Below, one piece after another: positions 12,405 through 18,072 of a stretch of DNA of 64,000 nt. A program made the translations under genes and the position numbers. Origin of the DNA: Eledone cirrhosa (Eukaryota); contig OZ024740.1 in the NCBI GenBank assembly GCA_964016885.1, forward strand, positions 176,204,001-176,268,000, read 5' to 3'. How positions within the stretch are numbered: position 1 is the stretch's first letter; each line of letters starts with the position of its first letter. The notes below the pieces were generated by a model that was not told the DNA's origin, did not search any database, and worked only from the letters and a program-made list of their open reading frames with translations.

Positions 12405-12443
12405 AATATGACAAAGAACGACGACACGTTTTCCATAGAAAAG
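12405..12443 (+). CDS. Micro-exon A1 (39 nt): (E)YDKERRHVFHRK
   Basis: ttcttttctgtttacag|39 nt|gtgata; homologous to the other A exons. Confidence 0.75.
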
Positions 12444-13475
12444 GTGATATGATGAAACATGTTTTATTATATTATATATACATCTTTATATACATAACAC
12501 TTTTACATGATATATATGGAACAATTCGAATTTGTGGGCAGAAGATAGGGTTCAATATCAGCATGAGTATATATGTTATACAACAACAAGAATCTATTTG
12601 AGAGAAGCGTGTTTTCAGTATCAATGTAACATCCATGCTTGATGAATTTACATTTGGCAGTATCGGTAGAGGGTCGGACGCCATGCTTTCCAGCATAGTT
12701 ACATGCCTTTACGATCTGAGTTCAAATGCCGCCGAGGTTGACTTTGCCTTTCATCCTTACGGGATCGATACAATAAAGTACCAGTAATGCACTGGGTATT
12801 TGCTGGCCGTGTGCCTAAAAGTAGAAACAATTATTTTATAGGTCAATTTTGAAACTTCGTTTTGAATGTAAACTTGACGTTTCAATAACATTATTAAAAC
12901 ATGCAATAGTGTAATGCACAAACATGTGGGCAGACACACAAAAAACACCCCAACCACCCAGATACATGCACACATGCATAAATCAACCAAATTGCTCACA
13001 TTGAGGATTTATGTATAACATATTATGATATACAGAGGAGTTCTAAGACTGACAGCTGGAATTGAATACATACAAAAGCTGACATTATTAGCATTCCTGA
13101 AACACAGGAAACGCCGATCAGAACGGACACAAATACCATAGTCAACATAAACTGAAGTGTGGCTAAGAGATGGGTTTTCAGCAATCACTATGATATATTC
13201 AAGAAATATTATTTAAAATATACTTGTGTACAATCACTTATTTCATACATACCCCATATTAGGAAACCCCTGTTAGAAATCAGATTTCATAAACATGAAA
13301 TATACAGAACCATTTATGTTACATTAGATACTGAAGGTGAGACGTTATGATCAACTCACAGTAAGGTTTAAATAAATTTCGAACGTGTTTCAGATTTTTT
13401 TATGTTACATATAATAAATTCCAAACGCAATATATTTGCTTGAATATATATTTCTTTATTCTTTTCTGTTTACAG

Positions 13476-13514
13476 GACATGTCCATACAGCATGTAAGTA
13501 TTACAATAGAAGAG
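13476..13514 (+). CDS. Micro-exon A2: GHVHTACKYYNRR
   Basis: tttacag|39 nt|gtgata, phase 1-1, open. Confidence 0.75.
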
Positions 13515-14795
13515 GTGATATAATGAAACATGTTTTATTATATTATATATACTTCTTTAAATACATAACTCTTTTACATTATAAATTTGAAAATTTGAAT
13601 TTGGGGACAGAAGTTAGGGTTCAATATCTACATGAGTATATTTGTTATATAACAACAAGTTTGTATTTGGGAGAAGTGTGTTTTCTGTATCAATGAAACA
13701 TCCATTATTTTAAAGGTCCATTTTGAAACCTAGCTTTGAATGTAAACTTGACGTTTCAATAAGATTATTAAAACTTCTAGAAGCGGTGAATTAGCAGTAT
13801 CGGTAGAGAGTCGGACGCCATGTTTTGACGCATAGAGTTACGGCCCTTGCCATTCTGAGTTCAAATCCCGCCGAGGTTAACTTTGCCTTTCATCCTTACG
13901 GGGTCGATAAAATAAAGTACCAGTAATGCACTGGGTAATTGCTGGCCTTGTGCCTAAAAGTAGAAACAATTATTAAAACTTCTACTAGTGTAATGTACAC
14001 ACATGTGGGCAGATACAAATGAAGATGCACAGAAACACACAAACAACACCCGAACCACACAGATATACACGCACATGCATAAAACAACCAAATTGCTCGC
14101 ATTGAGGATTTATGTATAACATATTATGATATACAGAGGACATCTAAGACTGACCGCTGGAATTGAATACATGCAAAGCTGATATTATTAGCATCCCTGA
14201 AATCAATCGGCAGAAGTAACTTAATTTTCTTGTCTCAGGGAACGCCAATCAGAACGGACACAAATACCATAGTCAACATAATATCAAGTGTGGCTAGATG
14301 TATTTTCAGCAATCACTATGATATATTCAAGAAATATTATTTAAAATATACTTGTGTACAATAGGTTATTTTATACATACTCCATATTAGGAAACCACCG
14401 TTAATAATCATATTTCATATACATGAAATATACAGAACCATTTACGTTACATTAGATACTGAAGGTGGATTAGCAGTATCGGTAGAGGGTCGGACGCCAT
14501 GCTTTTCAGCATAGTTACGTCCCTTTACGATCTGAGTTCAAATCCCGCCGAGGTTGACTTTGCCTTTCATCCTTACGGGGTCGATAAAATAAAGTAGCAG
14601 TAATGCACTGGGTGATTGCTGGCCTTGTGCCTAAAGTAGAAACAGTTACATTAGATACTGAAGGTGAGACGTTATGTTCAAATCCCAGCAAGGTTTAAAT
14701 AAATTTGGAATATATTACTGGTTTTCTTGATGTTATCTATGTAAGATTCCAAATGTAATATATTTTCTAATATATATATTCTTTTCTGTTTACAG

Positions 14796-14834
14796 TCCAT
14801 CGCTATGCACCACGACACGATTACCATAGAAAAG
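14796..14834 (+). CDS. Micro-exon A3: VHRYAPRHDYHRK
   Basis: tttacag|39 nt|gtgata, open. Confidence 0.75.
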
Positions 14835-15318
14835 GTGATATAATGAATCATGTTTTATTATATTATATATACTTATTTAAATACATAACATCCCGTAATT
14901 AAACGGGAGAGTAAACCTCATTTTCTTTTATCAGTTATTCATGAAACACAGGGAACACCGATCAGAACGGACATAAATATCAGTCAATAAACCCTCAAGT
15001 GTGGCTAGGAGATGGGTTTTCAGCAATCACTATCATATATTAAAGAAATATTAATTAAAATGTACTTGTGTACAATCAGTTATTTTATACATACCCCATA
15101 GTAGGAAACCCCTGTTAGAAATCAGATTTCATAAACATGAAATATACAGAACCATTAAGGTTACATTAGATACTGAAGGTGAGACGTTATGATCAACTCA
15201 CAGTAAGGTTTAAATAAGTTTCGAACGTGATTCAGATTTTTTAAATTTTACATATAATAAATTCCAAACGCAATACATTTGCTAGAATATATATTTCTTT
15301 ATTCTTTTCTGTTTACAG

Positions 15319-15357
15319 GACATGGCCATACATCTCGAAATTATTACAATAGAAGAG
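15319..15357 (+). CDS. Micro-exon A4: GHGHTSRNYYNRR
   Basis: tttacag|39 nt|gtgata, open. Confidence 0.75.
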
Positions 15358-16822
15358 GTGATATGATGAAACATGTTTTTTATATTATATATACTTCTTT
15401 AAATACATAACACTTTTACATTATAAATTTGAAAATTTGAATTTGGGGGCAGAAGTTAGGGTTCAATATCTACATGAGTATATTTGTTATATAACAACAT
15501 GTTTGTATTTGGGAGAAGTGTGTTTTCTGTATGAATGAAACATCCATTCGGTGAATTGGCAGTATCGGTGGAGGGTTGGATTATGCTTTCCAGCATAGTT
15601 ACGTCCCTTTACGATCTGAGTTCAATTCCCGCCGAGGTTAACTTTGCCTTTCATCCTTACGGGGTCGATAAAATAAAGCACCAGTAATGTACTGGAATAA
15701 TTGCTGGCCTTGTGCCAAAAAGTAGAAACAATTATTTTAAAGGTCCATTTTGAAACCTAGCTTTGAATGTAAACTTGACGTTTCAATAAGATTATTAAAA
15801 CTTCTAGAAGCGGTGAATTAGCAGTATCGGTAGAGAGTCGGACGCCATGTTTTGACGCATAGAGTTACGGCCCTTGTCATTCTGAGTTCAAATCCCGTCG
15901 AGGTTAACTTTGCCTTTTATCCTTACGGGGTCGATAAAATAAAGTACCAGTAATGCACTGGTTAATTGTTGGCCTTGTGCCTAAAAGTAGAAACAATTAT
16001 TAAAACTTCTACTAGTGTAATGTACACACATGTGGGCAGATACAAATGAAGATGCACAGAAACACACAAACAACACCCGAACCACACAGATATACACGCA
16101 CATGCATAAAACAACCAAATTGCTCGCATTGAGGATTTATGTATAACATATTATGATATACAGAGGACATCTAAGACTGACCGCTGGAATTGAATACATG
16201 CAAAGCTGATATTATTAGCATCCCTGAAATCAATCGGCAGAAGTAACTTAATTTTCTTGTCTCAGGGAACGCCAATCAGAACGGACACAAATACCATAGT
16301 CAACATAATATCAAGTGTGGCTAGATGTATTTTCAGCAATCACTATGATATATTCAAGAAATATTATTTAAAATATACTTGTGTACAATAGGTTATTTTA
16401 TACATACTCCATATTAGGAAACCACCGTTAATAATCATATTTCATATACATGAAATATACAGAACCATTTACGTTACATTAGATACTGAAGGTGGATTAG
16501 CAGTATCGGTAGAGGGTCGGACGCCATGCTTTTCAGCATAGTTACGTCCCTTTACGATCTGAGTTCAAATCCCGCCGAGGTTGACTTTGCCTTTCATCCT
16601 TACGGGGTCGATAAAATAAAGTAGCAGTAATGCACTGGGTGATTGCTGGCCTTGTGCCTAAAGTAGAAACAGTTACATTAGATACTGAAGGTGAGACGTT
16701 ATGTTCAAATCCCAGCAAGGTTTAAATAAATTTGGAATATATTACTGGTTTTCTTGATGTTATCTATGTAAGATTCCAAATGTAATATATTTTCTAATAT
16801 ATATATTCTTTTCTGTTTACAG

Positions 16823-16861
16823 TCCATCGCTATGCACCACGACACGATTACCATAGAGGAG
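16823..16861 (+). CDS. Micro-exon A5: VHRYAPRHDYHRG
   Basis: tttacag|39 nt|gtgata; recent duplicate of A3 (2027 bp apart). Confidence 0.75.
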
Positions 16862-17468
16862 GTGATATGATGAATCATGTTTTATTATATTATATATACT
16901 TATTTAAATACATAACATCCCGTAATTAAACGGGAGAGTAAACCTCATTTTCTTTTATCAGTTATTCATGAAACACAGGGAACACCGATCAGAACGGACA
17001 TAAATATCAGTCAATAAACACTCAAGTGTGGCTAGGAGATGGGTTTTCAGCAATCACTATCATATATTAAAGAAATATTAATTAAAATGTACTTTTGTAC
17101 AATCAGTTATTTTATTAGTATCCCTGAAATCAATCGGCAGAAGTAACTTAATTTTCTTGTCTCAGGGAACGCCAATCAAAACGGACACAAATACCATAGT
17201 CAACATAATATCAAGTGTGGCTAGATGTATTTTCAGCAATCACTATGATATATTCAAGAAATATTATTTAAAATATACTTGTGTACAATCAGTTATTTTA
17301 TACATACTCCATATTAGGAAACATTTACATTACATTACGTTACATTTACGTCAAATCCTAGCAAGCTTTATATAAGCTTGGAATATATTACTGGTTTTCT
17401 TGATGTTATCTATGTAAGATTCCAAATGTAATATATTTTCTAATATATATAGTCTTTTCTGTTTACAG

Positions 17469-17507
17469 CACATGGCTATGGACCACGACACCATTACCAT
17501 AGAGGAG
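17469..17507 (+). CDS. Micro-exon A6: AHGYGPRHHYHRG
   Basis: tttacag|39 nt|gtgata, open. Confidence 0.75.
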
Positions 17508-18032
17508 GTGATATGATGAATCATGTTTTATTATATTATACATACTTATTTAAATACATAACTGTTTCTACCGATACTGCCAATCCACCGCCGTAATAAC
17601 TCCCTGTAATCAAACGGGAGAGTAAACCTCATTTTCTTTTATCAGTTATTCATGAACCACAGGGAACACCGATCAGAACGGACACAAATACCATAGTCAA
17701 TATAAACTGAAGTGTGGCTAGGAGATGGGTTTTCAGCAATCACTATCATATATTAAAGAAATATTATTTAAAATGTACTTGTGCACAATCAGTTATTTCA
17801 TACATACCCCATAGTAGGAAATCACTGTTTGAAATCAGATTTCATAAACATGAAATATACATAAACATGAAATATTCATAAACATGAAATATACCATTAA
17901 TGTTACATTAGATACTGAAGGTGAGACGTTATGTTTAACTCTCAGAAAGGTTTACACAATTTTACGTATAATAGATTCCAAACGAAATATATTTGCTAGA
18001 ATATATATTTATTTATTCTTTTCTGTTCACAG

Positions 18033-18072
18033 GACATATGCAATATACCACGAAATTATTACAGTAAAAGAG
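18033..18072 (+). pseudogene. Dead A-type exon A7
   Basis: 1-nt insertion relative to its paralogue at 57689 gives an in-frame TAA. The homologous donor is changed from gtgata to ttgata. Confidence 0.65.

Follow-up and report, generated by a model that had tools for sequence, protein, structure and literature searches.

Results

A run of tiny candidate exons in one reading frame

The 64,000-nucleotide stretch of Eledone cirrhosa DNA analysed here (the window; assembly GCA_964016885.1, contig OZ024740.1, G000:C1:176204001-176268000 of a 3.0-Gb genome with SINEs and microsatellites like those of octopus DNA; position numbers count from window base 1) carries an array of short repeats, the A exons, whose translations are rich in His, Tyr, Arg and Gly. 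An initial annotation of positions 12,405 to 18,072 read seven such 39-base repeats as coding microexons in expansion. Splice sites, reading frame and a candidate signal-peptide exon upstream back this reading, and our analysis places the seven repeats in a series of about 100 candidate exons, all tiny and in one frame, that spans 184 kb (Table 1). The feature is real and probably represents a real, unannotated gene family.

Recounting the A units gave 17 across the window in groups of 7, 3, 3 and 4, as first described, with B, C and D exons after each group. Fourteen of the 17 are intact, being bounded by AG and GT, divisible by three in length and free of stops in a phase-1 frame. The consensus first quoted is the majority residue of each column; the only copies that match it exactly are those at 48228, 57163 and 58288, all beyond the part initially annotated. 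One 13-residue repeat per exon holds for the array, but not for the copy at 32603. Two of the three length variants that keep both splice sites remain in frame (66 and 42 nt), the 35-nt copy being out of frame, and the copies of 40 and 38 nt have each lost one splice site. A donors deviate from consensus at +5 and +6. Among the 33 distinct canonical 39-nt A copies of the locus, the phase-1 frame contains no stop and the other two frames contain 2 and 30; the open phase-1 frame is more than chance. For the window pairs, absence of stops by itself is non-significant (P = 0.06-0.22).

Scanning 464 kb with exon profiles recovered 92 A-type copies (from 93 hits, of which two fall on a single exon) together with 6 B, 7 C and 6 D copies, reaching 105 kb past the window, and no copy of any of these types in the 200 kb upstream. 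Genome matches of the A unit (40 scored of 87 candidates) and of the D unit (6) all fall within the locus. The intact copies assemble into a candidate gene model of 106 exons and 1,408 codons over 184 kb, with six A(n)-B-C-D cassettes, from which nine defective copies and an A fragment at 151591 are excluded. A 61-nt signal exon is joined by 105 exons divisible by three; 103 of the 106 are 36-45 nt long and 105 are phase 1-1. Because the exons are symmetric, any copy can be gained or lost without a frame shift, and no stop arises at the junction in 5,282 of the 5,565 possible ordered pairs of exons. A heuristic scan gave three signal-peptide candidates in the 212 kb upstream; the donor of one is in phase 1, and three further phase-1 exons come after it. 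At the other end, where the 3′ limit of the model is tentative, the 39-nt exon at 170226 likely continues the gene. Candidate last exons were also noted at L012:2922-2947 (26 nt after an A-like acceptor) and, by eye, at L012:6558-6629 (72 nt with a stop). At L009:7591-7674 (window 151591-151674), two A units may have been fused by a deletion, giving 84 nt in frame with the inner acceptor kept.

C and D have one Cys each in all six intact copies, with eight residues between them after predicted splicing, and a Trp is invariant in D. B and C together would form an amphipathic helix, and C-D a Cys-x8-Cys loop. The hydrophobic moments of five B-C pairs were matched by 0, 7, 170, 0 and 0 of 5,000 shuffles, and the helix faces agree across the B-C junction to within 22-34 degrees in four of the five pairs (77 in the other); support for the helix register is weak, as offsets of 0 or 4 residues fit almost equally. 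The exon types may have a common origin, with similarity between some pairs of types reaching z values of 4-6.5, but these values are inflated by common splice signals.

Duplication history of the array

The initial annotation described a near-identical tandem duplication of about 2.0 kb that had created A5 from A3. The duplication exists, but near-identity is confined to 1,385 bp (13704-15088 versus 15731-17115; 99.3% identity, offset 2,027 bp, 10 differences), and the remainder of the 2-kb period, holding A2 and A4, is just 93% alike. Three of the ten differences are clustered within 12 bp at the exon 3′ end and match A6. A5 is therefore a mosaic, and the direction from A3 to A5 is not supported. 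Together with the 93% of the A2/A4 part, these end differences suggest that an older two-exon duplication was likely overlaid later by conversion or unequal crossover. The tree of A units that had been suggested as a check groups A3 with A5 (97/96), these two with A6 (86/95) and A2 with A4 (85/80), with 7 of 14 inner branches unresolved.

Copying involved both single exon-plus-intron units and entire A(n)-B-C-D cassettes. The simplest history would be a small ancestral gene that underwent about six rounds of copying of its A-B-C-D cassette and about 90 of its A unit. Defective units were copied as well: three downstream A copies (142261, 146918 and 149724; L008-L009) have a common acceptor change from AG to CG, so a dead copy was itself duplicated. 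Three sequencing runs come from one sample and behave as genomic DNA. In two of them, pieces of the duplicated block had depths of 19-25 against 10-13 for their neighbours; downstream-array pieces had depths of 44-296. These are contig depths rather than copy numbers, from reads that may be the assembly's own source, and they hint weakly that the repeats did not arise through assembly error.

Amino-acid change in the window A exons

In six disjoint pairs of window A exons, 36 of 150 nonsynonymous sites differ (0.24), compared with 5 of 52 synonymous sites (0.097) and 58 of 538 flanking sites (0.108; nonsynonymous versus synonymous, p = 0.028). The pairs cover all intact window copies except 31747 and 32603 (12 of 14) and were picked for having the most similar flanks, a choice that biases the flank value downward. 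All 66 pairs, which are non-independent, gave 0.309, 0.100 and 0.108, respectively. The resulting ratio of about 2.5-3 is one between paralogous copies, not orthologues. Exon divergence exceeds intron divergence in 11 of 13 long blocks. When each allele is counted once, the excess is non-significant (32/76 versus 6/23, p = 0.22). CpG decay was considered as the source of the exon changes and rejected, with 1 of 38 alleles. B, C and D exceed their own flanks, with non-significant differences between nonsynonymous and synonymous change (p 0.10-0.58). No amino-acid excess was found in the two downstream A types (ratios 0.92 and 0.62), and the repeat of the paralogue described below has 0.085 versus 0.073. 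These values point to diversifying selection as likely acting on the cationic half of the predicted protein.

The same data bear on whether the locus is a decaying or silent tandem repeat, in which units were copied together with their splice sites and most are out of use. Nine copies are defective, two more would produce junction stops, a Helitron and many other insertions lie in the introns, and a dead signal-exon copy exists elsewhere; to these can be added the non-significant stop counts of the window pairs. Against decay are the 106 intact exons with a start, the lack of stops in 33 distinct copies, and amino-acid change faster than that of the introns, a pattern that neutral decay does not produce. 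Some units are also strictly kept. B1 equals B4 exactly although B flanks differ by 8.6%, D1 equals D4, three A copies encode an identical peptide, and the only two changes between 48228 and 58288 are silent. We therefore regard decay as a very improbable account of the locus.

A distant paralogue with the same exon design

Two relatives of the signal exon were located, both at a distance of 23 Mb. One is intact, with 65% identity over 20 residues, and begins a paralogue model of three acidic 57-nt exons followed by fifteen Lys/Tyr 45-nt exons, all phase 1. The 45-nt exons sit in 2-2.4-kb units that are about 91-98% alike, and further phase-1 candidates lie beyond. The second relative is a dead copy positioned head to head with the paralogue, 58 kb apart. 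Neither Arg-Arg nor Lys-Arg occurs in the paralogue's repeats. The paralogue thus has the same exon design without dibasic sites, indicating that the design is shared and that dibasic cleavage is not a family trait. This paralogue, the 92 A-type copies, the acidic downstream array and the amino-acid excess are additions to what the initial annotation had described.

Searches for homologues

The queries for the protein searches were single exons extended into the adjoining DNA, and the searches are weak for that reason. The A profile gave 85 candidates, none at E <= 1. A match to the signal-exon profile (P0001, 1 of 7,358, E 0.85) was rejected as unlike a secreted protein, and the only hit of the C profile (P0002, in 1.84 billion) was rejected as an unrelated 51-residue repeat aligned mostly over intron-derived columns. 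Three padded exon pieces contained no Pfam domain, the best PDB match had an E value of 3.3, and the Atlas gave no match. As a control, the receptor open reading frame (ORF) at L032 was also without a relative at E <= 1e-30, so silent searches do not show that homologues are absent. Six exon motifs were not found in the literature searched, and the titles and abstract openings covered gave no description of such a cephalopod gene; supplements of gland transcriptomes and proteomes may hold the protein.

Discussion

Charge blocks and the predicted product

The predicted protein is divided by charge. The window A exons have a net charge of +39 over 177 residues (Tyr 20, Arg 19, His 18%; pI 10.5), and the downstream A array has a net charge of -24 over 817 residues (Thr 18, Pro 13, Tyr 12, Ser 10%), with two alternating unit types and 18 distinct sequences in 65 exons. 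Charge follows chain position, since the B-C helix is also cationic in the window (+1 to +3) and acidic downstream (-2). Of the two functions proposed initially, matrix repeats and dibasic-cleaved cationic peptides, the matrix reading is favoured, and we tentatively propose a secreted, charge-blocked coat or cement protein. One 184-kb gene would encode a secreted, mostly disordered chain of up to ~1,400 residues that serves as a component of a coat, cement or mucus. Judging from composition, attraction between an N-terminal half that is cationic and rich in His, Tyr and Arg and a C-terminal half that is acidic and rich in Thr, Pro and Tyr would promote condensation, Tyr and His could provide oxidative or metal cross-links, and each helix with its Cys-x8-Cys loop might act as a repeated association node. 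From its amino-acid excess, the cationic half may be the part exposed to microbes or a mate. Egg cement, spermatophore and skin mucus are candidates for the expressing tissue. In octopus, the egg cement is a mucoprotein from the oviducal glands, in which a cross-linking peroxidase is expressed (PMC8976471); material of this kind therefore exists, which is not to say that the candidate gene makes it.

Several observations weigh against a coat or cement protein. A protein with a purely structural role would be less likely to show such an excess of amino-acid change. Splicing in order behind the signal-peptide exon is something we infer from the DNA, the signal peptide itself was called with a hydrophobicity heuristic and not a trained predictor, and condensation and cross-linking are inferred from composition alone. 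In addition to the nine defective copies, those at 30465 and 57689 pass the splice-site test yet would be skipped or yield short forms, because their final T before GA makes a stop. Finally, the RK/RR ends and the Arg spacing of the window A exons fit processing.

These last features are central to the alternative that the product is a polyprotein precursor, in which the cationic half would be cut at basic residues to release short, histatin-like His/Tyr/Arg peptides and helix-plus-disulfide peptides for defence or saliva, with the acidic half as a neutralising carrier. Dibasic ends, reported initially as frequent, occur in 7 of 14 intact window A exons (RR 2, RK 5) and in 1 of 68 downstream copies, and an Arg-x4-Arg spacing is present in 11 of 13 canonical 39-nt window copies and 0 of 68 downstream. 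The B-C helix is cationic and amphipathic in the four window pairs, and fast exons inside slow introns, as the nonsynonymous, synonymous and flank values of the six pairs imply, are typical of venom and defence peptide genes. Cleavage is harder to reconcile with the absence of Lys-Arg from all 81 canonical copies (13 window and 68 downstream), RK being a poorer convertase site, and with the Gly-Arg-Arg at the start of D, which is kept in just three of six copies. The acidic downstream helix, the paralogue repeats and the allele count of amino-acid changes also argue against a precursor, which we consider conceivable but doubtful.

Comparison with micro-exon genes

The architecture resembles that of the schistosome micro-exon genes (MEGs), which are defined by a pool of variants arising from alternative splicing. 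The stricter limit for a MEG exon is 36 nt, and just seven exons of the model have this length. With the 51-nt limit given in PMC4317164, 103 of the 106 qualify, and most of the coding region lies in tiny symmetric exons. Tiny symmetric exons and transposon-rich surroundings are common to both, and a signal peptide (heuristic here) and a fast mature region may be as well; PMC4350168 presents MEGs as restricted to flatworms and reports raised amino-acid change in their mature regions. The present locus differs in that its 36-45-nt exons are serial copies of four unit types, about 100 of them in one gene. The candidate gene, known here from genomic sequence, is MEG-like in build, and descent from MEG families is not claimed.

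By this likeness, the main job of the gene could be variation, with the skipping of symmetric exons giving a set of secreted variants that act where host meets microbe or mate meets mate. A candidate signal peptide ahead of nearly all symmetric tiny exons, the high fraction of stop-free exon pairs, the off-consensus A donors and an amino-acid excess like that of mature MEG regions (PMC4350168) are in keeping with this idea. In the downstream array, though, skipping would alter length more than sequence, because few distinct exons and no amino-acid excess are found there. We judge variation as the main function to be quite unlikely. The coat, precursor, variant-pool and decay readings can overlap. 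A broader proposition, which we rate as unlikely, is that a micro-exon gene family arose independently in a free-living mollusc, its secreted proteins made up nearly entirely of interchangeable 36-45-nt exons whose copying, positive selection and skipping yield variable cationic His/Tyr peptides or coat proteins. If true, a design described to date as confined to parasitic flatworms would be found in a mollusc. Genes of this kind are nearly invisible to annotation and homology search, and cephalopod glues, coats or defence peptides may therefore be systematically missing from proteomes. The locus would supply peptides that proteomics of glands can look for, and would be the second example beyond flatworms of a micro-exon gene design. 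Transcription of the model would mean a secreted protein of ~1,400 residues built by copying one 39-base exon about 90 times, with a recent re-tuning from acidic to basic or the reverse.

Comparison with repeat-based secreted proteins

A likeness to cephalopod beak proteins and suckerins, drawn in the initial annotation, fails on motifs. The squid histidine-rich beak proteins HBP-1, -2 and -3, like the product predicted here, are secreted and disordered with His/Tyr/Gly-rich repeats (PMC11931252), and Gly-His-Gly occurs in 5 of 13 window A copies. The beak pentapeptide GHG-(P/V/L)-(Y/H), as given in that paper, is absent from all 13 window copies and all 68 downstream ones. HBPs are proteins of 15-18 kDa with a pI of 6.0-6.5 (PMC11931252), in contrast to the Arg-rich window block of pI 10.5 in a far longer chain. 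Suckerins are likewise modular, with Gly, Tyr and His, and alternate Gly/Leu/Tyr modules with Pro-flanked Ala/Val/Thr/Ser/His modules, as described in PMC11931252. Their Gly-Tyr motif is present in only 1 of 81 copies here (1 of 13 in the window), no Pro-flanked Ala/Val/Thr-rich module is seen in the A copies, and the window block is 19% Arg.

Histatins, which are short His/Tyr/Arg/Lys peptides, together with caseins and other members of the SCPP family, are mammalian secreted disordered proteins that grew by duplication of short symmetric exons, with phase-0 introns. The exons here are phase 1, and the His-Glu-x-x-His zinc motif occurs in 0 of 81 copies. Any likeness is at most convergence.

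Other features of the locus

Among 78 of 631 long flanking ORFs compared with Pfam, retroelement domains and one receptor were detected, and no tyrosinase or peroxidase. The receptor-like frame is a possible synteny anchor.

Table 1. Candidate exons, duplicated blocks and neighbouring features. Positions without a prefix are window positions.
Feature	Position	Strand	Remark
Gene model	1..64000 (entire window)	+	starts ~14.2 kb before base 1; extends at least 106 kb past 64000
Signal exon	L039:5837-5897		hydrophobic 20-codon start; 26.5 kb before A1
Phase-1 exons after signal exon	L039:8632-8673, L040:3484-3543, L040:5077-5112		42, 60 and 36 nt
A1	12405..12443	+	39 nt, phase 1; most divergent copy
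A2	13476..13514	+
Block copy 1	13704..15088	+	1,385 bp; contains A3 and two SINE-like repeats
A3	14796..14834	+
A4	15319..15357	+	sister of A2
Block copy 2	15731..17115	+	1,385 bp, 99.3% identical; contains A5
A5	16823..16861	+	body like A3; 3′ end and donor like A6
A6	17469..17507	+
A7	18033..18072	+	broken: 40 nt, donor TT, in-frame stop
B1	20202..20237	+	36 nt; first half of predicted amphipathic helix
C1	23152..23190	+	39 nt; predicted second half of helix, one Cys
D1	23879..23923	+	45 nt; one Cys and one Trp
Extra B copy	30465..30500	+	weaker acceptor; stop would arise at junction with next A exon
A exon, cassette 2	31747..31785	+
A exon	32603..32668	+	66 nt; in-frame 27-nt internal duplication
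Helitron-like element	33542-38370	-	broken into several ORFs with domains of the Helitron N-terminal and PIF1 helicase types; lies in an A-to-A intron
A exon, cassette 2	39497..39535	+	past Helitron insertion in intron
B2	43450..43485	+
Partial C copy	45011..45049	+	broken: stop, no donor
C2	45490..45528	+
D2	46377..46421	+
A exon, cassette 3	47623..47661	+	weak donor GTT
A exon	48228..48266	+	exact consensus
A copy	48719..48757	+	donor lost (GG)
B3	50670..50705	+
C3	53099..53137	+
D3	53924..53968	+
A exon	57163..57201	+	exact consensus, identical to 48228
A exon	57689..57727	+	final T; junction to next intact exon would read TGA stop
A exon	58288..58326	+	consensus peptide; 2 silent differences from 48228
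A copy	58798..58836	+	donor lost (GG)
B4	60421..60456	+	identical to B1
C4	62968..63006	+
D4	63885..63929	+	identical to D1
Downstream of window			69 intact A exons, 1 B, 2 C, 2 D
Candidate 39-nt exon	L011:6226-6264 (window 170226)		just past DNA common to cassettes
Receptor-like frame	L032:865-1866	-	334 codons; peptide-receptor-like 7TM (Pfam Srw, E 3e-8); ~74 kb upstream of signal exon
Paralogue model	G000:C1:153240489 onward (L051:6561-6620 to L057; further candidates L058-L059)	+	intact signal exon
Dead signal-exon copy	G000:C1:153182791-153182947 (L049)	-	start changed, internal stop, donor and frame lost

Two further repeats were noted in the introns of the window. An inverted repeat of ~460 bp, 94% alike, lies in the intron before A1 (4799-5258 and 5758-6202), and nine copies of a 43-bp unit, 98% alike and derived from A-intron sequence, occupy 32050-32435.

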